A stretch of DNA of 53,862 nucleotides from Asterionella formosa (Eukaryota): assembly GCA_002256025.1 (NCBI GenBank), contig NKIB01013672.1, forward strand, positions 1-53,862, read 5' to 3'. The notes beneath the pieces were generated by a model. The model did not search any database. It saw nothing but the letters and a program-made list of their open reading frames with translations, and had not been told where the DNA came from. Of this stretch, positions 11,586-47,703 are shown piece by piece; positions within the stretch are counted from its first letter, which is position 1; the number at the start of each line of letters is the position of its first letter. Both the position numbers and the translations under genes were made by a program.

Positions 11586-12794
11586 ATGACAACTACCGGT
11601 GAGTCAGGAGCAAATTATGTCGGGGGCCAAACTACTACCAAAGTGCGTCAAGCGCTGGATATTGACAATTTATCGAAGTGGATGAGTCGACAGCTTGAAA
11701 TCCAAAAACTCTTCTCTTCACATGTGGACGATTCTATCGAACTCAACATTCGTCAGTTTGGCTTTGGGCAATCGAACCCCACTTACAAGGTCATAGCCAC
11801 ATGCAATCATCAAACAATCATCATGGTCCTTCGCAAAAAACCTCAACAGGTAGCTCATGCGTCTGCACACGCCTTGCATCGAGAATTCCAAGTATTGACC
11901 GCACTAGCAATGCACAACTTCCACGCACCAACTACAACGAGCATCGTTCCGGTCCCTCAAGTTCACGTCTATTGCGAGGACGCGGAAGTGGTAGGGGCGG
12001 AGTTCTACCTCATGGAATATGTTGAAGGACGAATATTTACGGATCCGACTCTTCATGGCATGTCTTCTTCAGATCAACACTTGGCCTATCAAGATGCACT
12101 CCGTGTGTTGTCCAATATTCATTCCGTTCAGCTTCGTAGCGTGGGACTGGAATTCTACGGTCAACCAGGAAATTATATACAGAGAAATATCCAACGACTT
12201 GTGTCTGTTAGTATCAAGCAATCGCAATTGTTAGGTGATGTACTTCCTGAACTAAATGGTATCACTCAACGACTCTCCCAAGCCGCCCCATATTGCCCGA
12301 ACTACGTTTCTCTTTTGCATGGAGACTACAAAGTGGACAATCTCATCTTTCATCCAACCAAACCAAAGATTATTGCTGTCTTGGACTGGGAACTTTCCAC
12401 GATTGGAGACCCCCTCTGCGATCTTGCCAATCTCAGTATGATGTATTTCATGCCCACGGCGGACCGTGGTGGCGTCGTGGGGATTGCCGGATTGCAAGGC
12501 ATTCAACTGGATACAACGGGTATCCCAACACGAGAAAAACTCATGATGGACTATTGCCTTTACAACTCGAATATTTCTCTTCGTCTAGCACAAGAATGGA
12601 GTGGCTTTTACTTGGCGTTTCTATTCTTCAAAAATTGTGTCATTGTACAGGGTGTGGCACAACGGCACAAGACAGGAGTGGCCAGTAGTGCTGTTGCTGC
12701 TAGGGTGGCTAGTTTACTACCCATTGTAGTGCAGACAACATTGAAAGTCTTGAACGATTATCCTCCACCGGTCGTGGCGTCAAGTCGATTGTAA
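11586..12794 (+). CDS. Aminoglycoside-phosphotransferase (APH) family protein, ACAD10/11 kinase-domain-like, with PTS1 (SRL)
   Basis: [35 protein letters not shown] and [19 protein letters not shown] motifs; C-terminal SRL; intact 402-aa ORF. Confidence 0.92.
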
Positions 12795-12800
12795 TACTTT

Positions 12801-15800
12801 CTATTTTACAAGGATGCTAACAACATGACGTTTTTTCAATGGCACATTTCGATACCACTTTTCGGGCACTTTGTCAATGGAAAATATTCCTTCCCTGGCG
12901 AGTGCCGCGTTCACTATCTCCGGTGCCCTACGTGTCACCGTGTTCAAAACATCGCTGGACACACATCCATTCTTTGCGCACAATGCAAACGCCTTGGATA
13001 TGATCAATTCGCTGCGCCCTGTTGGAAGACATTTCCAGCAGGCCTTGAGAAAAGAGTCATACGTTATGTGATTTGGTTCGAGATCAGCTTGTTCATGGAT
13101 TGCCTTGAATTGCTCCGCGGCAACTGCGAAATGATTTTTCTTTGCATCTGTCGACGAGGCATAGGCAAGTGCAGTGGCCAGCAAGACCCAATTATACGAG
13201 CCGATGGTCGGGGCCATATTCGCATCATCCTGTTGCATCTTCATCTTTTCTAATAAAATTGTGGCCTCCTGCACACTTTGTGCGTCGCCGCTTCGAGCCC
13301 AAGCAGCCAGAAAAATGTGGACGGTGGACCTATCCACTTGAAAGCTGACTTTTCCGGTCCTTACTAGTGTTTCCATGTGCTCGAAGAGTGCTTTGGCCTT
13401 TTCTTTGCTGCCCTTGGCTTTGCTGTACATGTATGCAGTCAAGGCTTGTTCATAAAAGCTTCGGGCCAATGGCGGCGACTTGCCACTTTGTGCCATTGTT
13501 TCAGCATCGGTTATCAACTTCTGAAGTAAGTCCATAGAAGCCTCCGTCCCATCATTTAGGCACATACGGCAAAGAATGGAATATATCATAATTGTAGGAG
13601 GTATTTTCAATTGCCGCATCTGGTCTAACAAGGCAAACCCCTTTTCTACTAATGGGCCGGGTTGGACTCCCACTTTGGCCAGCAAGTTGAACATTGTATT
13701 GAAAATGATTCCATCGGGCTTGAGGGAATCGTCCCCTTCTTTGTATCGCTGCAAAACTTCGTTAAATAAGGTTTCAGCTCGCATCACGGCATTGCGTCGA
13801 TCCACATCGTTGATGAGGCCCTCGAGCAGTGACGAGTAGGTGTTGATGCTGGGTTTCATGTGCAGATCCCCTGTAAGTGTCGCGGCTTTCATTTGCATCA
13901 ACAACTTGTCGGCTTTCTCGATGGATCCCTTCTTGGCATGGACATTGATAACACAGTTGAATTCAATAGTTCCTGGTTGAAGATAGAACAAATCATCTCC
14001 CTCATTGCTTAGTTCGATGACATGTTGAAGTAAGCACTCCGCTCGATAACCAGCATCGTCAGCCGGATTCTTTGCAAATTCTCTCAAAATACTCGTTGTC
14101 GTCCTTGTATTGATATCGAAGGTATCTTCACCATTGCGACGAAGCTGGCACATCTGAGAAAATAAATCATTAGCCATTTGGATCATGCCATTTTCACCGG
14201 ACTTGACTACAGATAATAAGGTGGGATATAGTACTCGATTGTTGGCTTTCGGAAATTGCCTTGGGTTTAGGTAATGCTGCTCCTCAACTTCTTGTAACAA
14301 TCTCAATGCTCGACTGCCGCAATTGACATGACCAGATGCAGCCCATGCGTCGAGAGCCATCGCATAGGTTTCGAATATCGGGGCAAAATCTTGCGCCACA
14401 GGAGTTCCTTTAAAATCATTCATCATGACTTCCATTAAAGATTCGACTTTTTCACCCGCATTTGACCTCTTGCTTTCCTTCCAGCCAGTTATGACAGCAT
14501 TGAATATCCAACGATCAACGCGGTATAATTCATTTCCCTTAACATTGCCTTCTCTGTACATAGCTCCTATTCTCCGGACCAAATCATCTGCAAAATTCAT
14601 CTTGTTCTCAGCCTCGGAACGCAGCCACGAATTAATGCAAGCTGCTAATGTCACTAGACTGACCATCTTCTTCTCTTTTACTTTCCTATTACAAGCAAGC
14701 TCGGACAACAACCGATGGGCTTGTTGAGGTTGATCTCTGCTAGCGTATGCCAGAATAACAGTTTGATAGGCAATGCGATCAGGCGAAGTCATACGCCTTA
14801 GAAGCGCTTCCGCTTCTTCTGCTCCCTTTTGATTTGCTTCGTTTACTCGAACCTGCATGGCTGCACTGTAGACATGAGCAGAATTCGATAAACTTGGGTC
14901 TTGTTCAAAATCTTCAATCAACTGATCTGTCCGTCGCAACGCTACCAGGACATCGTCCGGATCTACTATTCGGGAGTACGCTGTCAGTACTGACGCGTAA
15001 ACGTATTCATTGGGACGGTATGCAAAGTCTCCAGTTTTTTTGTAAATTGTCTTCAACTCTTGTAAGAGGGCATCTGCACGTTTCGCACCCTCCAGTCCCC
15101 TTCCAGCTTTGGCCCATGCATCCACGACGGCACTGTAGTCGCGAGCAGATGGCTTCATATTGAGTTCTTTCCCAGAGTCATGATACATTTGTATTCGCTC
15201 CTGCAGTAAAGCTTCCACTCTTTCCATGTCGTTACTTCGTGACACACATTTCATGACAGATGCGTAGGTGTACGCATTTGGTCGAGCATTTTCATTCGGC
15301 AGCTTCTTCATTTCCTCCAACATGTTCAAAGCTTCTTGTTTAATCTCATCATTCGATTTTGAGTTGCTCTTGTACAATGCTTCCAAATATGTAGTATACG
15401 TGAAAACGTCGGGACCGCTCTCTGAATTCTGGCTCTCACTTGCTTTCATTCGCTCCAACCATTCATTGGCCTTAACCCAGTTGTCCGCCCTCGCCCAGGC
15501 TTTGACGACGGCAGATAGCAGCACACGATTCGTTTTGATTTGCAAAGTTGGTTTTGACGATAATCTCTCCACCAATTCTTCCGCCCTCTTTGCACCCTCT
15601 TCGCCCATGTCAGCGTTCGAGTATGCGTTTGCCACAATGGCGTAACAACTCGAATCCGGTTCTACAGCTAGACCCCAATAGCTCGGACTGCAATTTTGAG
15701 AATTCAAATACCATCGATCTTCCATTGCTAGAAGTTCGGCATCCATACTCAAGGCCCTCTCTCGCTTGTCTTTAATTTTTTCCAGAGTTTGAAGGTGTGC

Positions 15801-16154
15801 GCGGAATTTGCTTCGATCTGGAGAAGGCGGTCTCCGTGGTGGCGATGATATGTAGTCCTGATCTTCATCTACTCCGATGAAAAGGCGGGATTGCAGAGGC
15901 ATTTTGGTGGTTCGTATTATTGCTCCCGTCAGTTCAGGCGATTTCCGGAAGTGGTGAAGTAGTAGTCGCTTATTGTGCCCCAATAGTGACTGAAATGATT
16001 CTGTTTGGTGAAGGTTCACCAAGACGACCACCATGATTGCTTTCAAGCTGAATCGACAATACCCTTGGAGCACTTGACGCCTGGACGACGGGCATTTCTG
16101 GAAGGACGTCATGGTCATGGTCGTGTTGTGTCTGAGGTTTGTTTGGCTATACAT
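12801..16154 (-). CDS. Large P-class pentatricopeptide repeat (PPR) protein, probably plastid-targeted
   Basis: 1117-aa ORF with many ~35-40 aa repeats (PDxxxYxxVxxAY/W...A..LL..M). Hydrophobic N-terminal segment followed by TES-F. Confidence 0.92.
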   Translation of the reverse strand: MYSQTNLRHNTTMTMTSFQKCPSSRRQVLQGYCRFSLKAIMVVVLVNLHQTESFQSLLGHNKRLLLHHFRKSPELTGAIIRTTKMPLQSRLFIGVDEDQDYISSPPRRPPSPDRSKFRAHLQTLEKIKDKRERALSMDAELLAMEDRWYLNSQNCSPSYWGLAVEPDSSCYAIVANAYSNADMGEEGAKRAEELVERLSSKPTLQIKTNRVLLSAVVKAWARADNWVKANEWLERMKASESQNSESGPDVFTYTTYLEALYKSNSKSNDEIKQEALNMLEEMKKLPNENARPNAYTYASVMKCVSRSNDMERVEALLQERIQMYHDSGKELNMKPSARDYSAVVDAWAKAGRGLEGAKRADALLQELKTIYKKTGDFAYRPNEYVYASVLTAYSRIVDPDDVLVALRRTDQLIEDFEQDPSLSNSAHVYSAAMQVRVNEANQKGAEEAEALLRRMTSPDRIAYQTVILAYASRDQPQQAHRLLSELACNRKVKEKKMVSLVTLAACINSWLRSEAENKMNFADDLVRRIGAMYREGNVKGNELYRVDRWIFNAVITGWKESKRSNAGEKVESLMEVMMNDFKGTPVAQDFAPIFETYAMALDAWAASGHVNCGSRALRLLQEVEEQHYLNPRQFPKANNRVLYPTLLSVVKSGENGMIQMANDLFSQMCQLRRNGEDTFDINTRTTTSILREFAKNPADDAGYRAECLLQHVIELSNEGDDLFYLQPGTIEFNCVINVHAKKGSIEKADKLLMQMKAATLTGDLHMKPSINTYSSLLEGLINDVDRRNAVMRAETLFNEVLQRYKEGDDSLKPDGIIFNTMFNLLAKVGVQPGPLVEKGFALLDQMRQLKIPPTIMIYSILCRMCLNDGTEASMDLLQKLITDAETMAQSGKSPPLARSFYEQALTAYMYSKAKGSKEKAKALFEHMETLVRTGKVSFQVDRSTVHIFLAAWARSGDAQSVQEATILLEKMKMQQDDANMAPTIGSYNWVLLATALAYASSTDAKKNHFAVAAEQFKAIHEQADLEPNHITYDSFLKACWKCLPTGRSELIISKAFALCAKNGCVSSDVLNTVTRRAPEIVNAALAREGIFSIDKVPEKWYRNVPLKKRHVVSILVK

Positions 16155-16390
16155 ATACCGAACGACGATAGGTAACGACTGATTGGAATTGTGATGTGTT
16201 GATAAATATTTCTCTGAGCTGACTGTGGTCGTATAATTTTATCCATCAATTTCATTGGTGATTAATGTCATACATATATAGCGGCATATTAACAAGGGGT
16301 CTGGGGAGCGAGGAAGGAAAGTCAAAATGGGTCATGACGATGGCAAGAACGACACAGCCCACCAGCCGCGTGGACCTCATCCTGACAAGT

Positions 16391-16518
16391 GGTACCTGGT
16401 ACCTGGTACCGGTCAGGTAGCTGGTACGGAGTACCGGTATGTGGTACCTGGTACCAGGTTCCATCAGGTAGTACCGGTACCGGTATTTCCATTTAGACAT
16501 TCCTCAGACAACCGGTAC
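16391..16518. repeat. GGTACC(A/T)/ACCGGT palindromic heptamer cluster
   Basis: ggtacctggtacctggtaccggt... between the divergent PPR and JmjC genes. Confidence 0.85.
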
Positions 16519-16677
16519 ATCTAGTCGTCGGACACCTGTCGACATCAACAGCCTAACAGACACATTCTGACAGGAGTACCCATCACCAGCATTCAAGTGC
16601 AATCGTTTTGGGATAATTCCGGTATGTACCATTTGTCTCATGATGGGAACAATAGGACCACCGTGTCGACAAGTAAG

Positions 16678-17739
16678 ATGACAAGAACACTGAAGACATG
16701 GACAGGATATTTGATCCATGTTGCAACTTGTGCACTGCTGATGCTAAATTGTTTAGCAAGTGCCTTTTGTATTGATAGATTGTCACCGCATCAATTCAGA
16801 GGAACGGCTCCACACCCAGAACCAGTTGTTGTTGAAGACATTATAGACTTGAAACCCTGCGATGAGTGGCTTAGTCACATTCTGACTCGCTCTGGTCATG
16901 AAATGGTCAACTTACAACGGGAGTTTGGAGTACAGCAAAAGACACTGGACAAAGCCATTGAAATGGCAATGACCAATTCCCGACACTCCGATGGGATCTT
17001 CATTACCTCCAAGACGGACAACGGATCATCCTGCTCAACAGATCAGCTGGCACTTTATGATGTTCAAGAGGACTTATTCGCAGACATTGACTGGCTACCA
17101 TACTTTGCCTACTACACTACTGTCTCCAATGCTTTGATTGTTTCTGGCAATGGCGGAACGTCTGAGTTAGAATGCTACCCATGGACGACAACAAAAACAT
17201 GTCTCAATGGATACCAAATATGGCAGTTGATACCTCCGGATTATGGACCATTGCTCCAACCACAACCTACTACTACCACAGTATGATGGGGTGAACACAC
17301 TCTATCCATGGGCCAAAGGTCAACATGGAATCTATTTGAATTCCGACATTCGGATGTTCAAGATGACTGGTCGGAATGGTTGGATGAAGAAAAGTGGTAT
17401 GAGATGCAAGAAGTGGCAGAGCTTTCCGACAGAATGAAACCCAATGTGGACGTGGAGGGACTGTATTATAGTACTGTCCTTACAGCTGGGGATTGTTTAG
17501 TTATTCCACCAGGGTGGTGGCATCAAAGTTATGGGTTGGAGCCCTCCATGTCAATTTCATCATTAAGATGTGGAACAACTCAAGATGTGCCAATGGCAAT
17601 TCAGAAAGTTTTGAGCGGAATAGAGGGGCAGGGTAAACCAGCACTGTTGGAACGAGAGGAATTTGATGACAATGAAGATGCAGCAGTTAAGGTGATCAAA
17701 GCTCTATTCGATTTTCTGGACAAGATGAACACATTATAG
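16678..17739 (+). pseudogene. JmjC/cupin-8-like protein with ASA-F plastid presequence, interrupted by an in-frame TGA at 17284-17286
   Basis: ORFs 16597..17286 and 17308..17739 are in the same frame. Motifs ALIVSGNGGTS, IWQLIPP and VLTAGDCLVIPPGWWHQSY; signal LLMLNCLASA-F. Confidence 0.75.
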
Positions 17740-17899: not shown

Positions 17900-20500
17900 G
17901 TATGAATGTTTTGCTTTATGTATACCTGGGGTGGTAAGCTATGCTGGCTATACCAGTTGTGGATATGTACCATAAAGCTATCTCAGGTGAAAGAAAGAAT
18001 TCCTAAAACAGCAAAATAAAATAAGGGTCATTCTTATCATCCTGTTATTGGTCATCATTGGTATATTATTGCTGGGTTTGGGTGCAAAAATGACAGTTAA
18101 TATCATTTTTCTTGTATCACCAACCAAAAATAGACTGTACCACTGATACCCTTTTTGAACCTCCTGACCATTGATGACTCTGTATCACATACGGTGTCAC
18201 CAATGAAATAACTATAAACATGCCAGCATCACACTAAATTGTGCTAACATTGGTGTTAACATTCCAAGAAAGTACTGGCAGTGCCAAATTGTCCTGCTTA
18301 TCCTCAAGGAACTTTGGCAGAAAGAAAATCAAATATTCAGTTTCTTCATTCAAGCATTCTTCTACAATGCAAATGGCAATTCCCTTACATTTTGTTTTGA
18401 AAGCGTCAATGCAGCTAAAACTAAAGTGCTGGACTCTTCAGCTGCACCCAGATGCAAAAAGAGATCCTTGATGTTTTGGTTACACTTAAAAGTCGTCTCA
18501 AGGTCTCTCATGTGGAATTGGAAGAGTTGGAAGATTGTGGATACAACTCTGTAAAAAGTACAGGCTTGGCTAGAAATTAAGATATGCAAAAGAAAGCGGG
18601 ATCACTATTTCCATCTGCTATCAGAAGGTCGTGGAACATAAGAATAGAACCAAAAGTTCAATACTATAGTTGTTAGTCTACATATAATACTTTTCCTTTT
18701 ATCTCAATGTTGGCAGGAGGTTGTTGCTATCCCAGTGTTCGAATTCTAATGAAGATCACATCTTGCTGAACAGCAGAGCTCCCAGGCAGCCAGTATATTC
18801 AATGTATCCACAATTGGTACGGAGACCCAGCCAAGATGGGGCAAAGCGACTGGGATTATCTCTGTAAGCAATCGATTATCACTTTTCCAGCCCTGGCTGG
18901 GATTGCCGAAATCGGCAAGGGGTCTACTGAAGGAAACCATTTTATATACTCTACAGATTTGGTTATAATAACCATTTTCCTCATTTTTGTTTGCTGCCTG
19001 AAAAGCGATTTCGGCAATTCACCTTTCACCATGCCAATCATCTTCCATCATGCTCAGCCTGAAGCGAAATGAGTTCATTGATGATGCCAGTAGCGATTCG
19101 TTGTCAAATGGATGCGGTTGGTTGTTGGATTGCTGCTTGTCTTCTTGTGAGATTGATGTAGTTGCATTGTCCATATTTCTTCAGATGAATGATGATTCCG
19201 ATGTATCTCTGATGTTGGCGGCAAGTTTTTGCTCCGGTCATTTATGTGCTTAACAGATATTCTCATCATATAGCCTATATATGTGCATGGTACTCAAAAC
19301 AACCATACATGGTTTAAGCTAAACTTTAACTTGTACTTTGAACATGTTATAATATTAATGCTGTAGACTCAGTATTATCTTTACAAGACCAGAATTTTAA
19401 ATTATATCATTTTCATATTTATGGATTTTATGTATTTCCGATTTCATCCTCACAATTATACTTCTCGATCTATCCTCGTGCCTGCCGATGCTAAATTTGG
19501 GTTTACAACATGGACCTTTTGACTTTTGTCTGATACCATTGTCTGCTGCATGTTATGCTAGTTAGAGTGGATTGGTGAGTATAACAGTGAAACACTGACT
19601 GTGGAATGTAGATACTTATTGTTCAATTTGCGATTTGATTGCTTCCATTGTCCGTTTTGATCGCTTCTACCTTTGTTTGTCGTCCTGTACTGTTGTTTTT
19701 GTTTGATAATATCTATCTACAAAAGGGCCGATGTATGTATCAATGCTTACTCTTTGATTTGTATAGTCATTGACCATGATGTCAATATTGCCGCCAAGCA
19801 ATGCTTTTCTTGTACTAACTCGCTTTGCTACCTTTCTACTCAGAGTTTGTATCACATACTATGTATCAATATTCAGCTAGAGGGAGTCGATAGTAATTGA
19901 GCAGACTGGTGATCACACTTGCTCAGAATGGAATGATCAGGGTTGTTTGGTGGGAGGAATGACTGTGGGCGGAAGCACTCCTGCTACGTGTGTCAGGCTA
20001 CAGCTATGTGCATGGTTGGTGCAGCAACCAGATCATCTACACTACATCAGTTGGATTCAGCTTTTTGTTCTTTTCTGTATTATTTTGCTCTTCGATTGTG
20101 TGATGGAAAATCAATGTTGCATGTGTAAGTACATACTACTACAATGCATACATCTCCACTGAAACTCATATTTTGTACTTCATTTCTAACCCAAAACAAT
20201 ATTTTCTATTTCTCATTTGATGCCACTTATTACATTGCATATCATACATTGGTTGCTCCAAACATCATTTTCAATTTTCATTGATATTGTAGTTTACAAT
20301 CATTCTCGTGTGTTCAATGCTAGTTTTACCATTTCTATGTATATTACCGTTATTCTGGTTGTCATGCTAAAATCGGCAATTTTATGCCAAAAATTCGTTG
20401 TGCCCCATATTGCCCCTAAATAAAAATTACTTACAGGTTAATAATTACTTTAAAATTACCCAAGTGGCAAGACGACAGCTGGAGAGGGAATTTCTACATG
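17900..20500. mobile_element. Unclassified degenerate TE-like relic
   Basis: AT-rich and CpG-poor, with only broken ORFs (e.g. minus-strand LLGGNIDIMVNDYT...IDTYIG). No termini identified. Confidence 0.35.
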
Positions 20501-20509
20501 GTAGGAGTA

Positions 20510-20610
20510 TCTGGTACTCGGAGTACAAGAAACTGTACTCAGACCACATATCCTGAACCACCAAGTACCAGGTACCGTACCTAGGCAATACCTGGTACTC
20601 CTACCTGGTT
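20510..20610. repeat. GGTACC(A/T) cluster
   Basis: gtaccaggtaccgtacctagg...cctggtact at the TE relic / PPR-TrmO promoter border. Confidence 0.75.
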
Positions 20611-20799
20611 CTCTGTGCCTATCAGTATCATCATAAAAAGAAGAAATGTCAGGCCTCCGCCGAGCGAGCCATGATATTTTAGTTGAAGAGTTTACAAATC
20701 ATCCACCCATCAAAAGAGGACGAAACGATGAGCGAAAACAAAAATCCATGAATATATTTATTGATAGTTACAGTATTCCTTCCATTCATTGCCTCCACC

Positions 20800-23454
20800 A
20801 TGACACGGCAGTTGAGATTGTCCGAACGAAGCTTCTCCATGTCGTCATTACGTTCGAGCATGTTCATCGTCCTTTCATTCACAATCATGATCCATTTAGG
20901 AAGTGCGTTTCGGGCGCCACCACATGGTAGAAAAGTCAATTACAACATTGTAACAACAACTGCTGGTCCATCGAGACAATCACCGAGACTAAAGCACACA
21001 AAATTGTATCGACAACAAGATTCTTCTAAGGATACTCCAACAAAGATAGCACAGCAAGAAGCTCTCTCGCTCTCAAAATTCTGTAACTACCTCGAATCAC
21101 TCCAGAATACCAGAGATAAACGAGAAAGCGCGTTGAAGATGGATTCAGAACTTGCTATTATGGAAGATAGATGGAAATTGAGCATTGGCAACGATCGTCG
21201 GTATACGGGATGGTACTTGAAGGATGATGAGGATGTTGGCCGCACGTATAAGGGACTAGCATTCAAGCCTGACGTCACCTGTTATACCATTGTGGCAAAC
21301 GCCTACGCGAATGCCGGAATGGGCGAAGAAGGAGCAAAACTAGTAGAAAACCTGGTGGAGAGATTCACTTCCAATTCACGAACACAACAGAACAGCAAAG
21401 AGCTCCTTTCTGCTGTCGTGAAGGCTTGGGCGGTCGCTGAGAATTGGACCAAAGCAAATGAATGGTTAGATCGAATGACAAAGAATGGGAGTTTACAAGC
21501 GCCCGACATGGTTACCTACACTATGTATCTAGGCGCGTTGTCCCAGAGTAAGTCAACAAATGAAATCGACCTACAAAGGGAGACTCTGGCAGTTTTGGAT
21601 AGGATGAAAAAACTGACTGTTATTCAAAATTGGGCGGCTCGCCGGTGGCGCGCCAAACTGTCGCAACGGCTTTCAAGCAGGACGGTTGATGATGTTAGTG
21701 TTCATTCAACCGCGATGGCGCGCGCAGTTCTCCCTTCAGCAATCCTCCGTGGTGCGTTCATAGCCACTACTCTTGCCTGTGTCGTCGACACTATTGTCAT
21801 CAGGAGAGGACAGTTAAGCTACAACAACTTGTTCGTGAAGGGAATGTCGACGAAGCTTCCCCCTGCTGCGGCATTGTCTGTTGCTGCTTTTGCAGTGGCC
21901 TTGGCGGGAATTCTCTTCGTTTCGCGAACATCATCAGGCCCTGCGCCAAGGGGACACGATCAAACAGATGGGACCGAGGGCGTTCGCGAATCCGTTGCTG
22001 GGTCTTCGGACACGCCATCAATCCGAGGGCGAAGAATGACAAGAACTGACGAAGAGTCCATTCAGACGGATGGACTTTTGGTGAAACCCATTGGAGTCGT
22101 GCATTCGATCTATCGCCTGTGCGTCGGAACACCTAGACAAGGATTGCTGGCGCCAAACGCTCATGGAAGAATTGAACTGAAGGGGCTCTCAGCCGACGCT
22201 GTCGATGGCCTTGAATGCTTTAGTCACATTTGGATTGTCTTCATCTTTCATTTGAACACACAAGCCAAGAATTCAAGCCGAATTCCTTCCAAGATTGCTC
22301 CGCCAGCACTCGGTGGACGAAAAATTGGCGTGTTCGCCACGAGATCGCCGCACCGAAACAATCCCATTGGGATGACTCTCTGCAAATTGGACTCCATCAC
22401 GAAACCTAACAAGAGTAGTAACAAGACATTTTTGAACGTTTCCGGATTGGACCTGGTTGATGGTACACCTGTTGTGGATATTAAACCATATGTTCCTCAT
22501 TATGATTCCGTTCCCGCAGACCAATTGACACTGCCATCATGGGTCAGTGGTGGACTGGCTACTCGGAGACCGGTGAATATTGAAGCACAAGCGCTACATG
22601 CCTTGGAAGACATCTTGACGGAAAATCCCAAGGCGCTGCAGTTTTATGGTGGCGACGGTCAATCATTGGATGCCATTGTGGATCAGGTTGCCAATTGCAT
22701 TGCAGAAGTGCTATCGGTGGATGTCAGAAGCGCATGGCAAACAAAAAAGGCGCGAGAGGGAAGGTCTCAAGCAGAACGAGCGGAACGTGTCCAAGGAAGC
22801 TACACTGAGGCTACTGACAATGTCGATGGTTCGGGTGGCACGCAACTGTGTACGCAGCAATTGGACAATTTGTTGATTCATTACACCGTATCACAGCCCG
22901 AAAGCCAGAGTCGGGATGCCTCGGAAGGAAGTGGAGCGGAAGATATTGTTTCAGTGCATTCCATCCAACTACAAGATCAATCCGCTGTGAATTTACAAAT
23001 CGAGACGAGGACGTCAGCTGTTACCGACGAAGTTGAGGCGCAATCAGTGGCGTCCCAATCAGTTTGCGAACTGGATGTCGCTCAATCCAATACTAACGAG
23101 ATTATATCAAACATCGAAGAAGAACGAAAAGCAGCACCGCCATTAGTGCTTTCTCCCCAATTGCTGAAAAAGGCACCGGAAAAGAGCCGTGTTCAAGTTG
23201 TTGCCTCGATAGAAGAGGATATTCCAACAGACGGGGAATATCATGCGCTAAAGAATTATTGGTCAATGGCGGCTAGTAAAAATACTCCAACTGGCCTGAT
23301 TCCCGATAAGGAAAGACGACAATCTTCGAAAAGATCCTTTGTTTTCTCGGATAAACCAGTTGGTTTGCAACAAAACGACGAGCCTCCTACTATTGTGGAG
23401 TCGGCTGAAACCAATCTGTCAACACCGGACCAGCCACCGACAGGCAGCACATAA
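20800..23454 (+). CDS. TRMO: Chimeric ORF: plastid presequence + ~3 PPR motifs fused to a TrmO/TsaA tRNA m6t6A37 methyltransferase (native TrmO start probably 21715 or 21844)
   Basis: The N-terminus aligns by eye with the PPR at 12801-16154 (DKRESALKMDSELAIMEDRW...PDVTCYTIVANAYANAGMGEEGAK). The C-terminal part has KPIG, GTPRQG, GLECFSHIWIVFIFH, GVFATRSPHR and GLDLVDGTPVVDIKPY. No stop codon between them. Confidence 0.85.
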   Translation: MTRQLRLSERSFSMSSLRSSMFIVLSFTIMIHLGSAFRAPPHGRKVNYNIVTTTAGPSRQSPRLKHTKLYRQQDSSKDTPTKIAQQEALSLSKFCNYLESLQNTRDKRESALKMDSELAIMEDRWKLSIGNDRRYTGWYLKDDEDVGRTYKGLAFKPDVTCYTIVANAYANAGMGEEGAKLVENLVERFTSNSRTQQNSKELLSAVVKAWAVAENWTKANEWLDRMTKNGSLQAPDMVTYTMYLGALSQSKSTNEIDLQRETLAVLDRMKKLTVIQNWAARRWRAKLSQRLSSRTVDDVSVHSTAMARAVLPSAILRGAFIATTLACVVDTIVIRRGQLSYNNLFVKGMSTKLPPAAALSVAAFAVALAGILFVSRTSSGPAPRGHDQTDGTEGVRESVAGSSDTPSIRGRRMTRTDEESIQTDGLLVKPIGVVHSIYRLCVGTPRQGLLAPNAHGRIELKGLSADAVDGLECFSHIWIVFIFHLNTQAKNSSRIPSKIAPPALGGRKIGVFATRSPHRNNPIGMTLCKLDSITKPNKSSNKTFLNVSGLDLVDGTPVVDIKPYVPHYDSVPADQLTLPSWVSGGLATRRPVNIEAQALHALEDILTENPKALQFYGGDGQSLDAIVDQVANCIAEVLSVDVRSAWQTKKAREGRSQAERAERVQGSYTEATDNVDGSGGTQLCTQQLDNLLIHYTVSQPESQSRDASEGSGAEDIVSVHSIQLQDQSAVNLQIETRTSAVTDEVEAQSVASQSVCELDVAQSNTNEIISNIEEERKAAPPLVLSPQLLKKAPEKSRVQVVASIEEDIPTDGEYHALKNYWSMAASKNTPTGLIPDKERRQSSKRSFVFSDKPVGLQQNDEPPTIVESAETNLSTPDQPPTGST
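21623..21657. promoter_or_regulatory. Candidate CHR-like (TTCAAA) and E2F-like (GGCGCGCCAAA) motifs in the PPR/TrmO linker
   Basis: TTCAAAATTGGGCGG at 21623 and GGCGCGCCAAA at 21647-21657, in a GC/CpG-rich patch just upstream of the putative native TrmO ATG. Confidence 0.4.
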
Positions 23455-23852
23455 GAGACTTGACGTCTCGATGTGCTATAACAACAAATACCTTAGTATT
23501 CACCTAGAAACTCTTGTTTGCCCTGATTGCGCCATCCATATGACAACAAATTATCCCCTCACTATAGCAAGTGACTTTCACTGTATAAAATATAGGAATA
23601 TTTCCTATTAACGTGAATTGTAACAACACAGTATAAATGGCAAGACATCTTACGTAATTGCCTGTTGCGTTCCGGAGTGTGGATGTAATGGCTGTGTACC
23701 GGTAGTGATATCATGAGAGAGTTGACCATCACAAATCGAACGTGTACGCTGGGGTATTCTACGTAGTCTAGCGATCCATCAGGAATAGGAAATAAATTGT
23801 AGCAAGTATCTGTTAGGTATACTGTACATTGTACATACATTTTAATAGCAGA

Positions 23853-24079: not shown

Positions 24080-24470
24080 ACTACAGACATTTAAATGTAT
24101 TACCTTTATTAGATAGATCTATGTCGTTGGACGAAGAAGGCTATAGATAGAGACGTTCGTTTATCTTTCCGTTTTTATATTCTTATTGTGAGTTAACTAA
24201 ACTAGTTTAGGTTGTTCGGTTTGAACAAACAAATGAACTATTCTCCAAATGCTGTTTGCATTTTTAGAAACATACAATCATAGATAGACCCATGTCGATC
24301 TCACACTTCCTGATCATAGGTTTTTAACCATTGATCATTCATTTTCAAACTATCAGTCTTCCAAAATAGCTTCTATTGTCCGGCTCATTATAGCCGGAGT
24401 AACAACGTAAAATGTGTGGCTGATGAGAGCTTGGTACATCAAAGTTAACTCATTCGAATCATTTGACTCA
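24080..24470 (-). mobile_element. Possible Copia-type 3' end relic (RNase H tail, PPT, LTR start)
   Basis: Minus strand reads DSNE...CTKLSSATHFTLLL, then purine-rich ATCAGGAAG directly before TGTGAGATC (24304), followed by TAGATAG-rich sequence. Confidence 0.3.
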
Positions 24471-25720: not shown

Positions 25721-25947
25721 ATAGCTAACACGGGGAAGCAATAATATATACCTTACAAGTAGTATCATATCCAATCACACTCATCAGTGTGGTCAAAAAA
25801 TATTCATCAGTTCATTTGTTATTATTAACAGCACATACATAGGACCTGATCCTTCTATTGATGCTTGTCGTCCCGAACAAGTTCTTTCAATCGCTTAAAA
25901 CAGTATCACACAAAGCCTTCGTTCACCAGAAGACAAATCTCCCAATC

Positions 25948-28900
25948 ATGAAGTTCCAGGGAGCCTTCGTCGCTTGTTCGTACAGCCTGCTGGCAACAGT
26001 CAAGGCGTTTTCGCGTCCACATCAGCTGCACAAATCCTTCGTCAGACACCCATCGTCGTCGTTAGCCGTCGCTGCCATTGAGCTGCCAGCAAGTACGAAG
26101 AGCACTGTGGTCACTACCCCCGAATCTGACTTTATCCAACCTGACCCAGATCGGCGGCAATACCGAGCCATCAAGCTAGCTAATGGCCTTGAATGCCTCC
26201 TTGTCAGTGCTCCAGAATCCGACGTGGAAGCCGGCGCGGTTCACGTCAAGGCGGGTCACATGGACGACCCAGACAACCGACCTGGTCTCGCACACTTCCA
26301 CGAGCACATGCTGTTTCTGGGCACAGCCAAGTATCCCGACGAGAATGAATATGAACAGTTTCTGAGTCAGTATGGGGGGAGTTCCAATGCGTATACGGAC
26401 ATGGAAGATACCAATTATTATTTTTGTGTCAGTCCGCTTGAAGACGATGAAGAGGATGAAACCACGTCTGCTGCGTTGGAGGGGGGCTTGGATAGACTTG
26501 CACAGTTCTTCATTTCTCCGCTGTTTGACGCAAACATGGTGGACAGGGAGCTTCGGGCCATTGACAGCGAATACAGAAACTCGTTTACAGCTGATGGGTG
26601 GAGAAGCTACCAACTTCTCAAGGCATCGGCAAATCAAAAGCATCCATTTGCAAAATTTGGGTGTGGGAATTATAAGACTTTGACGCAAGGAGGGGAAATT
26701 GTTAATTCAACTCACTCTACTCCTGGGGAGTCATCGCCAGTTCAAGACTTGGAGAACTTTTGGAACTCATATTATCAGACATTTAATTTAAGATTGAGTG
26801 TTGTAGGCAAATCATCGTTGGATGAGCTACAAGCTTCCGTCGAACGCACGTTTGGACAGTTGCCACCGTCAGAAGGAACTCGTCGACATAGCAACATGAT
26901 GCCAAACAAACAATTCGCGATGGAACATTCACAATATGGTGGGGTACCGGCTTTTGGTCAAGGGCAACTCTCGAAAATTCGCGAAGTCATTCCCTTATTG
27001 GAGGGACGATCCATCAAACTATACTTTGCGACACCACCGCTTGATGATCCCGTTTTGAAAGAGTCTCGACCCTACCGTGTCCTTTCTCACTTGCTCGGCC
27101 ACGAGAGTCCAGGAAGTCTTTATGTCTTGTTGGATGAAGAAGGGTGGTTGGACGGTCTTTCCAGTGGAGTGGGGATCGACACGTCGGACTTTTCCTTATT
27201 TACGCTGACATTGAGTTTGACTCCAACAGGAATGGCAAACAAGGACAAGGTTTTGGAGCTTGCTTTCCAGTGGATTGCACTAATTCGTGAAACACCCACA
27301 GAAAGGATGCAACAGTACCACGATGAATTGAAACAAATCACCGATACAAATTTCAAGTTCCGAGAAAATGGAGATCCAACTGACTTTTGCTCCGCAGCCG
27401 CAGAATTGCTCTTTTCGTACGATCCGGCTAAACTCTTGATTGCATCTGGGCATGTGGGGGATTATGATCCAGAGGTCGCCAGGGCGTTTTGGGATAGAAT
27501 AATACCCGAAAATTCCATGATCAGTATTATGAACTCGGACTTAAAAACAGATATCATGTCGGACGAATGGCAAAAAGAACAATGGTATGGTGCTCAATTC
27601 AGGGAGAGTCCAATATCTGCTGAACAAATCAAGGAGTGGACAACACCCGCCTCTATTGACGAAAGACTGCATTTGCCAGATTTAAACGAATACATTCCCA
27701 CGGACTTTTCACTTCGATGTGACGACGCAAAGTATCTGGACGATGACGACGACGATGAGATTGGCGAAGAAGTGCCGCGAGTTTTGGTGGACCGTCCTGA
27801 CCTCCGCGTGTGGCACAAAATGGATCGCAAATGGAGAGTCCCTAAGACGGTTTTTCATCTATCTTTGTTGTCGCCCAATGTTTACCGTTCTCCTCGCACC
27901 ATGACGTTGAACCGACTTTACGAACGTGTTCTCAATGACGACCTTAACTCCTTTGTGTACGATGCCAGTCTGGCTGGTCTCAATTACAAGGTGTCATGTG
28001 CTCCTTCTGGTTTCCGTATTTCTGTCAGAGGCTACTCCGAAAAGATCTCTTTCTTGGTTGACACGTTGACTTCGAGAATGTTGAGTTTAATTGAGGAACT
28101 GAAGGAGGGCCCAAGTGCTCACCCAGGGCTCGCGCTGAATTTTCGAAACGCAATGGAAGGCTTGCTTCGGGAAACCAAGAATTATCGACTGGATACTCCA
28201 TATGACATTGCTAGCTACAATTCTCGTTTAGTTCTCGAAGAGTCTGTCTGGTATGTGCAAAGCTATTTGGACGAAATGGAAGGCGATACAGCAGTGAAGG
28301 ACCCCTTGACCATGGAAGAGTGTGCTCGTGTGGCTGAAGAATGCCTACGAGGTCGTCTTAAGGCAGAATCCCTCATTATCGGAAACATCGACGAGGAAAG
28401 TGCACAGAAGATTGCTGATGTCGTCGACTCGCACTTTTTGGCACCTTCCCGTCCTCTACTTGACAATGAAGTTCCAAGTTTTAGATCTATGAAACTCCCT
28501 ACAAACGCTGAAGCAATTGCTATCTTTGGTGCTTCCGTTGCTGACAAGACCTCTCCTATTGTTTACCAAGAAATAGCCTACAGCGAGTCCGAAGACAACA
28601 GCGCCATTGAGCTGATCCTACAAGCTGGTTGCGACTTTACTCTCGGCTACGAAGGAGTTGCCATCATTGATTTGTTGAGTCACATGGCTTACAGCTCAGC
28701 ATACAACCAGCTTCGTACCAAAGAACAGCTTGGCTACATTGTCAGCGCCTATGTGCGAAAGACAACTGGCGGAGGTTGGGGACTTTCTGTTGTTGTGCAG
28801 AGTAGTGTCTCTACTCCCCTAGTCCTTGAGGAACGATGTGAGGCATGGCTAAAGCAGTTCCGCACAGAGTTAGAAGAAATGAGCGCAGAATCAATGTCCA

Positions 28901-29364
28901 GAGAAGCAGAGGCTGTGGTAGGTCAACTGCTCGAGCGCGACACCAAGCTATCGCAAGAAGTGGGCCGATTTTGGGGCGAGATCATGAACGCAGAGGGACT
29001 ACCTGCAGAAATGCGGACTCCGTCCTTTGATCGACTAGAACTTGTTGCCGATGAGCTCCTTGTTTCAGAAGATGGCGACGAAGATGACCTATTCTACACA
29101 AATGGTAAGAAACGAAAGAATGCAGTGGAGTTGAAACAAGCTGTGCTTGATTTTTTCGACAAACATTTTCCCTTCGGTGCTCCCGAACGCCGGGCCATGT
29201 CAGCTCGAGTTTACAGTCAGAAGGACAGAGCCGAGTTTGATGCCAATAAAGGCAAACCAGGAGTTCTCTCCAGCTACGAAGAGATTCGAAACTTGAAACA
29301 GTATTTAGAGACATATCCCACTGCTCCTTACTGGCGAATCACGAAGGACACCTCCATCATATGA
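25948..29364 (+). CDS. Insulysin/pitrilysin-like M16A metallopeptidase, probably plastid-targeted
   Basis: PGLAHFHEHMLFLGT (HxxEH), GGSSNAYT, LSHLLGHESPGSL and QLRTKEQLGYIV motifs. Signal MKFQGAFVACSYSLLATVKA-F from the ATG at 25948. Confidence 0.95.
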   Translation: MKFQGAFVACSYSLLATVKAFSRPHQLHKSFVRHPSSSLAVAAIELPASTKSTVVTTPESDFIQPDPDRRQYRAIKLANGLECLLVSAPESDVEAGAVHVKAGHMDDPDNRPGLAHFHEHMLFLGTAKYPDENEYEQFLSQYGGSSNAYTDMEDTNYYFCVSPLEDDEEDETTSAALEGGLDRLAQFFISPLFDANMVDRELRAIDSEYRNSFTADGWRSYQLLKASANQKHPFAKFGCGNYKTLTQGGEIVNSTHSTPGESSPVQDLENFWNSYYQTFNLRLSVVGKSSLDELQASVERTFGQLPPSEGTRRHSNMMPNKQFAMEHSQYGGVPAFGQGQLSKIREVIPLLEGRSIKLYFATPPLDDPVLKESRPYRVLSHLLGHESPGSLYVLLDEEGWLDGLSSGVGIDTSDFSLFTLTLSLTPTGMANKDKVLELAFQWIALIRETPTERMQQYHDELKQITDTNFKFRENGDPTDFCSAAAELLFSYDPAKLLIASGHVGDYDPEVARAFWDRIIPENSMISIMNSDLKTDIMSDEWQKEQWYGAQFRESPISAEQIKEWTTPASIDERLHLPDLNEYIPTDFSLRCDDAKYLDDDDDDEIGEEVPRVLVDRPDLRVWHKMDRKWRVPKTVFHLSLLSPNVYRSPRTMTLNRLYERVLNDDLNSFVYDASLAGLNYKVSCAPSGFRISVRGYSEKISFLVDTLTSRMLSLIEELKEGPSAHPGLALNFRNAMEGLLRETKNYRLDTPYDIASYNSRLVLEESVWYVQSYLDEMEGDTAVKDPLTMEECARVAEECLRGRLKAESLIIGNIDEESAQKIADVVDSHFLAPSRPLLDNEVPSFRSMKLPTNAEAIAIFGASVADKTSPIVYQEIAYSESEDNSAIELILQAGCDFTLGYEGVAIIDLLSHMAYSSAYNQLRTKEQLGYIVSAYVRKTTGGGWGLSVVVQSSVSTPLVLEERCEAWLKQFRTELEEMSAESMSREAEAVVGQLLERDTKLSQEVGRFWGEIMNAEGLPAEMRTPSFDRLELVADELLVSEDGDEDDLFYTNGKKRKNAVELKQAVLDFFDKHFPFGAPERRAMSARVYSQKDRAEFDANKGKPGVLSSYEEIRNLKQYLETYPTAPYWRITKDTSII

Positions 29365-30301: not shown

Positions 30302-30319
30302 TTAACTTGTTGACACAGA

Positions 30320-30633
30320 CTACCAGGTACCAGGTACCGTACCTTGTACCAGGTACCAAGTACCTGATACCTGATACCTGGTACTGTTACCCGTATGTAG
30401 AGTGAACGGGATAATAGTCTACCTGGTACCGGTACATTGTAGACTCTTGGTACCAGTACCAGTACCTTGGCACCCAAAGAAGTACCACAAGAAGGTACTG
30501 GTACCAGGGAGCAGGAGAGAATTACCGGCCGTGATGTCGCTTTTGTTGACACGGATGCTGCACCTAAAGGCTTACCTAGACATCTTAGAGAGTACCTGGT
30601 ACCAGTACCTATGTAGTCTGGTACCAGGTACTG
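30320..30633. repeat. GGTACC(A/T) cluster (largest in the window)
   Basis: taccaggtaccaggtaccgtaccttgtaccaggtacc... between the Kolobok end and the DBT promoter; a related cluster lies at 29790-29930. Confidence 0.9.
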
Positions 30634-30770: not shown

Positions 30771-32510
30771 ATGACTCCGATCTATGTCCGTTCATCGAAG
30801 GTGAGGATAGAGATCAGAAATGTGAGTGACCCAATTTCTATTTGAGTCAAAGGCTAATTCGCCAATTCTTGTTTTGTTTCGTTACACTGTGTAGTTTATT
30901 CGATGCCTGTCGCTTCCAAAGCGACTCCTTCGGAGTGTCTCTACTCTGAATCAAGAGAAGCATGTATTTCAACTAAAAGGAATCTACACAACTAAACTTG
31001 GAGGATTGACTTTTCACAGTGTCGCCAAAACGGACTCAAACAATCAACATCGCGCTGTCATGTGCGTTCGCAAGCAGTCAACGGCGACAGTCATCGATGA
31101 AGAAAAACCAGCTACTCGTAATGTTATTCCCTTTATACTGGCTGATATCGGAGAAGGTATCTCTGAAGTAGAATTACTGCAGTGGTACGTTGAAAAGGGT
31201 GACCGAATTGCTCAATTCGATCGAGTTTGCGAAGTCCAGAGTGACAAGGCAACAGTGGAGATCAGCTCAAGATATGATGGTGTCGTGCAATCTCTGAATG
31301 GGAAGGTTGGGGAAATAATGCGTGTAGGGTCGCCTCTTCTCCATATTGCGGTAGCTGGCTCGGAGGCTTCCTCTGATGAAACACAAGGGGGAGATCGTTT
31401 TCATTCTGACAATGTCCTGCACAGCATCAATGACCAACAGGACCAGCTCCACATCCCAAATAAAAAGATTGAATTTAAGGATGTATCCGTTTCAGAAAAT
31501 TCACATTCACCACCTGTAAAGAAGGTGTTAACAACTCCAGCGGTTCGTAAGCTTGGTATGGAGAACAAAATTGATCTCTCCTCTATTTCTGGCTCTGGAC
31601 CTCATGGTCGAATCCTCAAGGGCGATGTCTTGCAGCTCGTACATGCGAATGCAAATTTAACTGTCAATGAAGGAATCGAGTCCTTGGCGTCAACTGAGAG
31701 GGTAAATCCTACAATACTATCAGACGAGGATGAAACTGTTCCAATTAGAGGCTACAACCGGCTCATGTGCAAAACAATGACCGCGTCACTACAAATTCCT
31801 CACATGTGTTATGCAGACGAGATTAACATGAATGCTGTGCTAAAGTGTCGACGAGACCTCAATCCAATTGCAGAAGCCAATGGAGTCAAACTATCGCTGC
31901 TTGCATTTGTCATCAAGGCAGCATCGTTGGCCATGAAGGAGTATCGAGTCATCAATTCAAGCTTAGACGCTGATCAATATACGTTGACATACAAAGCTAA
32001 TCACAACATCGGAATTGCCATGGACACGCCTCGGGGATTGGTGGTTCCAGTTATCAAGGGGTGCCAGAACCTTTCTATTTTTGACATTGCTCGTGAGATC
32101 GAAAGGCTTAAACAATGTGTAAGTGATCGACGGAGCAAAGGGCGTGTACTGTATTCCATGAGGTATGGATATAAGTTCTCATCAATTTCTTTCTACTTGC
32201 TCAGGCTTTGAACTTCCAACTAACAGAGGAAGACATTACTGGGGGCACATTTACTATCAGTAATATTGGAGCAATTGGCGGTACCTACATGTCGCCCATT
32301 GTGAGCTCCCCACAGGTCGCAATTGGTGCCATGGGGAAGATTCAACGACTTCCGCGTTTCGTTGGCGAGAAAGTGGAAGAAGTCAACATAATGCAGATTT
32401 CGTGGGGAGGAGATCATCGGGTCATCGATGGAGCGACGATGGCGCGATTCTCCAACAGGTGGAAAGAGTATTTGGAATCTCCTATCACGATGTTGATGTC
32501 CATGAAGTGA
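30771..32510 (+). CDS. DBT: Branched-chain 2-oxo-acid dehydrogenase E2 (dihydrolipoamide acyltransferase); exons 30771-30800, 30895-32118, 32205-32510
   Basis: Lipoyl domain (LADIGEGI...[15 protein letters not shown]), E3-binding TTPAVR, catalytic [12 protein letters not shown] introns restore the frame; Arg/Ser-rich mitochondrial presequence. Confidence 0.95.
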
Positions 32511-47094: not shown

Positions 47095-47703
47095 GCTGGT
47101 TGCTTTAAACTATTATACACATGTGCATATCTTATGGTTTGCCTTGTTTTTTGTGAAGTGCTGAGATTTTATTATTCTACTTGAGCGAATATCCCATGTA
47201 GACTACGGTATCCTACCGGGTACTGGTTCGTTATCTGATCTTACGACATTACAGGTACGATTTTTCGTCGTAACTATCGTACAATGTATTTACCAATGTA
47301 TCTATTCAATGCATGCAAAGTGACACACTCTCGAGAGATTATTTTATATCCATATCTGACACAAAAATTCTTTAAGTAAAGGGGACTACAAAGTATTGAT
47401 AAACTCGTTGTGAGGATGGTTGCGCGGGGTTACTTACGACACTTACGTATACAACCATACAGTGGATTAGAAAAGGCATGCAAAACCAATTTACAACAAC
47501 ATACCCTCATGTGTTGTATGTGTGAGCGAGTATACCGGTATGTAAATCCCCTTCGATCGTTTCATTTTCGTTGTGTACATAAATATTTATTTTTGCCACC
47601 AGCCAACACGAAGAACACACAACGATGGGATGCTGCTGATGACTGTGTCGAACGCATTGACTCCATCCCTCACATTTTTGTTATATTCCATTCCATTCCA
47701 ATC

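Follow-up and report, generated by a model that had tools for sequence, protein, structure and literature searches.

In the freshwater diatom Asterionella formosa we find a gene whose predicted protein joins three pentatricopeptide repeat (PPR) motifs, copied from the 5' end of a neighbouring gene, to a tRNA methyltransferase of the TrmO (TsaA) type. The gene lies in a stretch of 53,862 nucleotides (contig NKIB01013672.1 of assembly GCA_002256025.1, positions 1 to 53,862 of the forward strand), referred to here as the window, where an open reading frame and translation check returned a single open reading frame (ORF) without a stop at 20800-23454 on the forward strand, encoding 884 amino acids (aa) plus a stop codon. 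An initial annotation of this DNA had proposed one in-frame PPR-TrmO gene, and our analysis bears out both the uninterrupted frame and all of the elements listed for it, each close to where it had been placed.

The protein opens with a signal-peptide-like segment (aa 1-36, window 20800-20907), recognised by its hydrophobicity and by a small-x-small site, GSA, with F37 directly after it. This is followed by a basic, Ser/Thr-rich, transit-peptide-like segment (aa 37-84, 20908-21051; 28-36% identical to orthologues), by two long helices with the pattern FxxYLxSL...RDK...MDxELxxMExRW (aa 81-130, 21040-21189), drawn from an AlphaFold2 (AF2) model and from orthologue identity, and by three PPR motifs (aa 155-272, 21262-21615), placed by Protein Data Bank (PDB) sequence matches, helix pairs in the AF2 model and identity to a paralogue. 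A lineage-specific linker (aa 273-348, 21616-21843), dissimilar to the paralogue and 25-28% identical to orthologues, contains a first hydrophobic stretch, H1 (aa 316-334, 21745-21801), and leads into M349 and a second, H2 (aa 356-374; 21844-21921 together), which align with the N-terminus of non-fused relatives. The TrmO catalytic region (aa 425-665, 22072-22794), identified by PF01980, TIGR00104 and PDB matches, has an N-terminal beta-barrel and a C-terminal helical part; behind it comes a long C-terminal tail (aa 666-884, 22795-23451), delimited by regional identity, with a conserved end block (aa 784-855). RNA contigs put the approximate mRNA at 20718-23652 on the same strand, with the proviso that contig ends are not mapped transcript ends.

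The frame that carries all of this holds no stop. Frame 2 has 18 stops across the N-domain, 4 across the linker and 9 across the TrmO part, and frame 3 has 14, 4 and 13. Shuffling the bases of the 152-codon linker between the PPR and TrmO parts left it open in 25 of 20000 trials; for the 76 codons that run from the junction up to M349, the figure was 674 of 20000. An accidental or decaying chimera, in which the PPR copy merely abuts the TrmO gene and the product that counts is a short TrmO with an internal start, is at odds with the 18 and 14 stops that surround a clean frame in the N-domain.

Judged by its sequence, the catalytic part is an intact TrmO. In a Pfam scan PF01980 covers aa 443-569 (E 1.1e-35; 122.7 bits against a cutoff of 26.8), and the NCBIfam equivalog TIGR00104 (TsaA/TrmO) covers aa 427-573 (119.1 bits against a cutoff of 93.25); no C-terminal TrmO model was reported at E<=1 in the Pfam scan of the fusion. 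All four PDB sequence matches at E<=1e-3 are TrmO/YaeB proteins (7btu, 3e-29; 1xqb, 3.5e-27; 2nv4; 3okx), the 1xqb alignment extending to aa 601. The AF2 model of aa 273-700 is poor (mean pLDDT, the predicted local distance difference test score, 54.5); its Foldseek matches at E<=1e-3 are TrmO, YaeB or AF0241 in eight of eight cases, over 208-286 aligned columns on two-domain chains with a root-mean-square deviation of 8-9 Å.

In A. fulgidus AF0241 the contacts to S-adenosylmethionine (AdoMet) are made by Q22, R82, D111 and K122, which correspond to Q25, R92, D125 and K136 of the E. coli enzyme (PMC4132733), and those four residues are needed in vivo in E. coli (Kimura et al. 2014, PMC4132733). 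In a hand-counted alignment with 2nv4 the fusion has identical residues at Q447 (22138-22140), R515 (22342-22344), D551 (22450-22452) and K562 (22483-22485), spanning 22138-22485, and all four are invariant in the five of five fused-clade sequences compared. Because the AdoMet-binding residues are intact, the TrmO part looks catalytically competent, and the enzyme would presumably still convert N6-threonylcarbamoyladenosine at tRNA position 37 (t6A37) to its N6-methyl form (m6t6A37).

The C-terminal tail is common to fused and non-fused diatom TrmOs (P0007-P0022). Its end block (window 23149-23364) reads ...PTDGEYxALKNYW..AASKNTPTGL.P.KE...F.FSDKP and is 62-69% identical among fused-clade sequences, against only 22-29% in the stretch just before it; no Pfam family matches the tail or this block. 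Two relatives carry further material: P0048 has an N-terminal sulfotransferase domain (PF17784, E 1.7e-40), which may reflect a merged gene call, and P0016 has a C-terminal Stc1-like match just below the Pfam cutoff, preceded by a long repeat region rich in Ala, Glu and Lys.

At least part of the fusion stretch is present in 16 RNA runs from 14 studies. We aligned RNA contigs, as opposed to reads, from four of these runs in four studies (X1, X3, X7 and X8) to the window. Contigs bridge nucleotide 21616, the junction between the PPR and TrmO parts, in three of the four. In X1 (poly-A) a contig at 21479-23652 has 0 mismatches and overlaps a second contig at 20754-21498; in X3 (poly-A) a contig at 20719-21721 crosses the junction; and in X7 one 2959-nt contig, from a diverged strain or relative, spans 20403-23388 and has three extra nucleotides in the linker, at 21642/21643, that leave the frame intact. 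In X8 nothing covers 21598-21661, a gap that gives no evidence of a transcript boundary. No splice joint was seen in any of the four runs. RNA across the junction, which the initial annotation had called for, is thus in hand and is unspliced. A transcript that contains the PPR part has no stop before the TrmO end, and therefore the fusion is its only product, which, together with RNA over the whole ORF, stands against an accidental chimera; the fusion gene is real, transcribed and encodes one polypeptide. The 5' ends of the RNA contigs at 20718 (X8), 20719 (X3) and 20754 (X1), set against a 3' end at 23652 (X1), only suggest that the ATG at 20800 is usable. Near these 5' ends, an upstream ATG at 20728 opens a 7-codon upstream ORF (20728-20751) in the main frame, and another at 20748 (20748-20930), in a different frame, overlaps the main start.

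The N-domain is a PPR-derived, three-motif stub rather than a profile-confirmed PPR protein. When aa 80-300 were used as a phmmer query against PDB sequences, 29 matches were returned at E<=10; 18 of them reach E<=1e-3, and all but one of these 18 are named as PPR proteins. The natural PPR10 of maize (4m57) matches over one stretch of about 95 residues (E 3.6e-7); designer PPRs match at much lower E-values, which are inflated by repeat summation. The same segment matches 530 proteins at E<=1e-3 in a search of 1.84 billion representatives. The best non-self match, P0053, is 99.7% identical to the window ORF at 12801-16154 on the reverse strand, and the next matches form a family of diatom PPR proteins of about 430 aa, 30-40% identical, most of which align across nearly the entire N-domain query. 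PPR Pfam matches at E<=0.01 occur in 12 of 14 proteins of this top family that were scanned, and P0054-P0062, a PPR family that stands alone, share with the fusion the two helices ahead of the repeats.

Modelling aa 80-300 with AF2 from an 18-sequence alignment gave a confident structure (pLDDT 84.4; predicted template modelling score, pTM, 0.81). It begins with two long helices (model residues 2-24 and 28-51, pLDDT 83-97) and, after a disordered loop, continues with three pairs of helices that span aa 159-192, 200-228 and 237-273 (about nt 21274-21618; in model numbering 80-92/97-113, 121-133/137-149 and 158-169/176-194). As modelled, these pairs form the tandem helix-turn-helix solenoid by which PPR proteins are recognised.

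The source of the N-domain is within the window. The ORF at 12801-16154, on the opposite strand and 4.6 kb from the fusion, encodes an 1117-aa PPR protein, identified by Pfam and BLASTP, that scores 86.4 bits with PPR_2 and also matches PPR_3, PPR_long, PPR and PPR_1. Fusion aa 93-272 and aa 116-285 of this parent or paralogue are 49% identical (90/184, E 4e-49; tblastn and BLASTP), and the similarity ends at nt 21615, exactly at the junction annotated earlier at 21616. The comparison shows that the N-domain descends from the 5' end of the neighbouring PPR gene, copied in truncated form and joined to a diatom TrmO; the truncated PPR duplicate that had been suspected is confirmed, with its parent in the same window. 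The copied piece included the start codon and presequence, because the parent also begins with a hydrophobic core and then TES before an F. Parent and copy are separated by at least one gene (ORF pieces at 16525-17739). At the DNA level they are still alike only where they code for protein (70% over 205 nt, 77% over 69 nt). We considered and rejected co-duplication of a promoter, as the regions upstream of the two start codons share merely a 17-nt match (E 0.029). Some 240-250 nt upstream of both start codons lies GGTAC/GTACC-rich sequence (20500-20620 and 16252-16524), to which a 42-nt stretch near 30.3 kb (30319-30356) is an 81% match; such sequence could be a small repeat or a motif common in promoter regions.

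The recipient side of the junction can be traced in the same way. Non-fused diatom TrmOs (P0007-P0012, P0016, P0021-P0024) have a short N-terminus with one strong hydrophobic stretch followed by basic residues, and the N-terminal Met and anchor of P0007-P0011 align with the internal KGM(349)xxK and H2 of the fused proteins, in which K347, G348, M349 and K352 are invariant in five of five clade sequences. On this alignment M349 is the start codon, and H2 the membrane anchor, with which diatom TrmO ancestrally began, and diatom TrmO appears membrane-anchored in general; in the TrmO literature texts searched, as far as their available parts go, neither membrane anchoring of diatom TrmO nor the long conserved tails are mentioned. 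For the roughly 76 codons that separate the PPR breakpoint from M349, H1 among them, no relative was detectable; they are among the least conserved parts of the protein. Kyte-Doolittle values are 2.49, 2.33 and 2.43 for H2 in the fusion, P0003 and P0004, and 1.78, 2.19 and 1.66 for H1. M349 has a purine at -3, and no ATG occurs in any frame in the preceding 128 nt (21716-21843), an absence that is weak evidence in itself; an internal transcription start would allow a short, ancestral-type isoform from M349. The conserved M349 and this ATG-free stretch are also what an accidental chimera would have in its favour.

Full-length relatives of the fusion are P0003 (874 aa, 58% identity, 98% coverage), P0004 (881 aa, 55%) and P0220 (872 aa). 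Full-length fused ORFs occur in four clusters at 90% identity: that of this species (6 of 10 members full-length, 848-871 aa), a second with 4 of 4 (857-874 aa), a third with 3 of 4 (881 aa) and a fourth with 1 of 4 (P0220). Several of these gene calls start at GTG or TTG, so the gene caller was evidently prokaryote-style and the long proteins are continuous, unspliced ORFs. Four lineages thus keep the fused ORF, and the stop in the linker with separate PPR and TrmO genes, named at the outset as a finding that would speak against a fusion, is not what these fused-clade relatives have. Their retention of some 348 upstream codons, open and in frame, is difficult to square with a copy that merely abuts TrmO.

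A maximum-likelihood tree of the TrmO core, with 39 rows (36 hand-chosen from the 50 other relatives P0003-P0052, plus the fusion itself as P0001, P0052 and P0220), unites the six fused-clade rows with 100/100 support, as a single clade within or beside the single-anchor diatom TrmOs. A single clade with this support implies one fusion origin, before the lineages split. Among 10 other relatives that are long or have a long N-terminus, a search for independent PPR-TrmO fusions found a PPR Pfam match only in P0220, of the same clade.

Conservation within the clade is sharply regional. The identity of the fusion to P0003 and P0004 is 70% and 67% in the N-terminal helices, 62% and 65% in the PPR block and 91% and 90% in the TrmO N-domain (84-91% in the TrmO region overall), against 28% and 25% in the linker, 34% and 31% in the spacer and 27% and 29% in the variable tail (aa 726-783). 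The flanking parts of the tail are 73-76% (aa 666-725) and 62-68% (aa 784-855) identical to the orthologues. Within the species, among 10 cluster members of which 6 cover the N-domain, eight amino-acid variant sites fall in the transit-like part (2), the linker (4) and the tail (2), and none in aa 85-272 or aa 425-725. The PPR block is therefore constrained and has some role, and its conservation well above that of the linkers tells further against an accidental chimera. This is an old gene fusion kept by selection. The suggestion of a young chimera that happens to read through has to be given up: identity to the parent is down to 49%, four lineages keep the ORF, and the PPR block is far better conserved than the linker.

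The presequence bears on where the protein might go. In the fusion a hydrophobic window at aa 21-31 (Kyte-Doolittle 2.67) is followed, by a hand rule, by the GSA-F site at aa 34-37, and the 25 residues after GSA contain no D or E and 3 K/R. The aligned site is ATS-F in P0003 and P0220 and TMS-F in P0004. Phe at +1 is kept in four of four fused lineages and in the parent; the next 15 residues contain 0 D/E and 2-4 K/R in each of these five, and the first 25 contain 0 D/E in four of four fused lineages and 1 in the parent. Diatom plastid proteins have a signal peptide and then a transit peptide with F, Y, W or L at +1 (ASAFind 2.0, PMC12136025); acidic residues are almost absent from the first 15 positions of the transit peptide, and periplastid proteins lack the aromatic (PMC12136025). 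The predicted presequence of the fusion has the ASAFAP-type +1 residue and the acid-poor, net-positive start of this class, and plastid targeting is probable. m6t6A37 has been reported in spinach chloroplast tRNA-Thr, with no enzyme named in the accessible part of the review (PMC8877259), and an Arabidopsis chloroplast preprint, likewise without naming an enzyme in its accessible part, includes m6t6A among annotated plastid A37 modifications; since the modification is reported in chloroplast tRNA, a plastid TrmO activity is plausible.

Based on these observations, we suggest that the best explanation is a selected fusion that retargeted TrmO to the plastid and retained the PPR stub as an accessory handle, to which we assign a probability of about 0.55. 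The 5' part of the nearby PPR gene was copied in front of a diatom TrmO gene, bringing with it the start codon, putative signal peptide, Phe-initiated transit-like peptide, two-helix motif and first three PPR motifs, and its frame now continues across about 76 new codons to M349, the former TrmO start, and the membrane anchor behind it. Retargeting is most likely what the fusion chiefly achieved: with the borrowed bipartite presequence the enzyme would travel by the endoplasmic reticulum (ER) route into the complex plastid, H1 and H2 may form a hairpin that tethers the protein to a membrane with both the PPR block and TrmO on the stromal side, and the enzyme would there methylate t6A37 in plastid tRNA. 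The conserved block of helices and three PPR motifs would most likely serve as an auxiliary handle for binding RNA or a partner.

Several observations pull the other way. At the presequence, R at +2 departs from the tendency of transit peptides to be uncharged in their first three residues (PMC12136025), and our hand rule is crude, as it picks an earlier F within the hydrophobic core in P0001 and P0220. The N-domain scores below the curated PPR cutoffs (PPR_2 21.7 against 30, PPR 19.1 against 25, TIGR00756 17.6 against 20), the orthologues are likewise sub-threshold, and no Foldseek match of its model reaches E 1e-3 (best 4e-3). Twelve of the 19 best Foldseek rows are titled PPR proteins, at about 3 Å over 116-140 columns, a result of supporting use only, and the other seven are six chains of organellar ribosomes or plastid RNA polymerase without a given identity plus 4ozs, an "RNA binding protein". 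H1 is moderately hydrophobic, poorly conserved and without a helix in the poor model, which has a helix at H2 only and is no reliable guide to whether H1 and H2 form a hairpin; were H2 the sole membrane-spanning stretch, the PPR block and TrmO would lie on opposite sides of the membrane. The 3' RNA contig is deeper than the 5' contig (69 against 44 in X1, 29 against 9 in X3), although such depths cannot rank gene parts, and the fourth cluster contains short gene calls of 594, 588 and 535 aa (P0005, P0218, P0219) with internal ATG or GTG starts, in which interrupted alleles are possible; both would also suit an accidental chimera. Finally, no fused orthologue DNA was found among the 80 loci retained of 143 confirmed in a metagenome scan, the best being 44% identical over aa 429-724.

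The point about H2 leads to an alternative that we consider unlikely, but that survives better than the others. The protein may enter the ER with only H2 spanning the membrane, so that TrmO sits on the cytosolic face and acts on cytosolic tRNA and the N-domain is lumenal (ER or chloroplast ER) or cleaved. On our alignment the ancestral anchor and start survive as H2 and M349, and H1 is weakly hydrophobic and poorly conserved. All 21 aligned relatives outside the fused clade have only a short N-terminus and a single hydrophobic stretch, and the core motif begins by residue 176 in all 29 outside-clade tree rows where it was found, so that the family default would be a membrane anchor with the catalytic part behind it. 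Set against this, a domain of RNA-binding type has no obvious use in an RNA-free lumen, yet it is constrained, and the +1 Phe and acid-free transit start, which are linked to plastid proteins (PMC12136025), are kept in four of four lineages and the parent.

Less probable again is the proposal of the initial annotation that the enzyme is PPR-guided, the PPR tract recognising a specific organellar RNA and delivering TrmO to it, which might give a new substrate beyond t6A37 tRNAs. One PPR motif contacts one nucleotide, so three motifs would read about three nucleotides at most. In a hand-read alignment, position 5 across three orthologues is T/A/A in motif 1, S/S/D in motif 2 and T/T/T in motif 3, with D kept at the last position of motif 2; the variation in motifs 1 and 2 argues against a conserved RNA code, while the constant T of motif 3 and D of motif 2 could be read in its favour. 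The N-helices and PPR block, 62-70% conserved between lineages and without within-species variants, do something, and fusions of PPR to catalytic domains that act on tRNA exist (PPR-TGM, PMC4029402; PRORP, whose PPR_long model weakly matches the parent). The parent, however, has many more repeats, leaving the stub without most of any original binding surface, and bacterial TrmO finds its tRNA without any PPR (PMC4132733). With three motifs only and specificity positions that vary between orthologues, the guided reading is improbable, and the stub is unlikely to be a long programmable sequence guide.

We regard as comparably doubtful, if more far-reaching, a reading of one gene with two enzymes: a long, membrane-tethered plastid form, for which the conserved helical and PPR handle would supply a plastid-specific partner (RNA, or the ribosome or nucleoid), and a short, anchored form from M349 that would keep the old role facing the cytosol. 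If it were true, taking over a neighbour's 5' end would at one stroke have given a tRNA modification enzyme two destinations, and the long form would be the first representative of a PPR-TrmO class. That the PPR copy is an accidental or decaying appendage to a TrmO made from an internal start is, given the stop-codon pattern, the RNA and the four lineages described above, very improbable.

The other ORFs with Pfam matches are ordinary eukaryotic genes: an APH-type kinase (11586-12794), an M16 insulinase-like peptidase (25861-29364), a 2-oxoacid dehydrogenase E2 (31060-32211), a P5A-type ATPase (36883-40779), an inositol monophosphatase family protein (45685-47094), an XPG nuclease (47416-50943) and a DOMON-cytochrome b561 protein (51055-52977). 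Between the PPR gene and the fusion, two adjacent open frames on the forward strand (16525-17739; 253 and 150 codons, stop to stop) probably belong to a single gene that is split by an intron or a frameshift; the first piece has no Pfam match at E<=0.001, and the second contains a PPGWWHQ stretch that we take to be reminiscent of cupin/JmjC proteins. RNA contig depth is very high on both sides of the fusion in X7, at 300-1470 in window 19800-20550 and 24179-24300. Upstream, an 1183-nt X1 contig of depth 344 matches only 20357-20433 and then departs from the window, and loose ends include a GGAAT-type satellite. The upstream depth looks like a repeated or highly expressed element; Rfam and tRNA scans found no Rfam family or tRNA around the gene, so it is not a known RNA family.

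The scope of these findings is narrow, being one small diatom clade with function inferred. Within it, the locus is a clean, datable example of a nuclear gene that gained an organelle address and an RNA-binding module at once through partial duplication of a neighbour, with donor, recipient and junction all within one 10-kb stretch. If the plastid location holds, the fusion is a candidate enzyme for m6t6A37 in a secondary plastid; the spinach chloroplast in which m6t6A37 was reported (PMC8877259) is the primary plastid of a land plant, whereas the host of the fusion has a secondary one.

Among TrmO proteins, the bacterial TrmO/YaeB enzymes (E. coli, P. aeruginosa 7btu, H. influenzae 1xqb), the A. 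fulgidus protein (2nv4) and human TRMO have the same catalytic domain. These enzymes are small and soluble, of about 150-250 aa, whereas the fusion adds a 424-aa N-terminal extension and a tail of about 220 aa. Closest are the single-anchor diatom TrmOs, named entries of which include Cyclotella cryptica and Amphora coffeaeformis: their core is 44-62% identical to that of the fusion (best local alignment), they share the H2 anchor and long tail, and they are sister groups in the tree, but they start at a Met matching M349 and lack the presequence, PPR block and H1.

Among PPR proteins, PRORP (PPR with an NYN nuclease), PPR-DYW and PPR-SMR also place PPR motifs N-terminal to an RNA-acting catalytic domain and are organelle-targeted; they differ in having longer PPR tracts, other catalytic domains and no membrane helices between the modules. 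A literature search over texts other than supplements and subscription-only papers found no paper pairing "TrmO" with "pentatricopeptide"; "TsaA" and "pentatricopeptide" co-occur in a review that, judged by its title, concerns methionine in maize. The novelty claimed for the architecture thus stands as far as PPR-TrmO itself goes, and falls short in that PPR-TGM had already joined PPR to a tRNA methyltransferase. The PPR-TGM subfamily, found in diatoms among others, has N-terminal PPR motifs and a C-terminal tRNA methyltransferase domain (PMC4029402), an arrangement like that of the fusion, and was proposed to have arisen when a tRNA methyltransferase gene that already existed was extended at its N-terminus (Manna and Barth 2013, PMC4029402). 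Its catalytic domain is a chlamydial-type tRNA guanine methyltransferase, in contrast to the beta-barrel TrmO/TsaA domain (PF01980) of the fusion, which is further set apart by its confinement to one small diatom clade, a donor 4.6 kb away and membrane helices between its parts. The A. formosa gene would thus represent a second kind of PPR-tRNA-methyltransferase fusion beside PPR-TGM, and also a case of retargeting by presequence capture.

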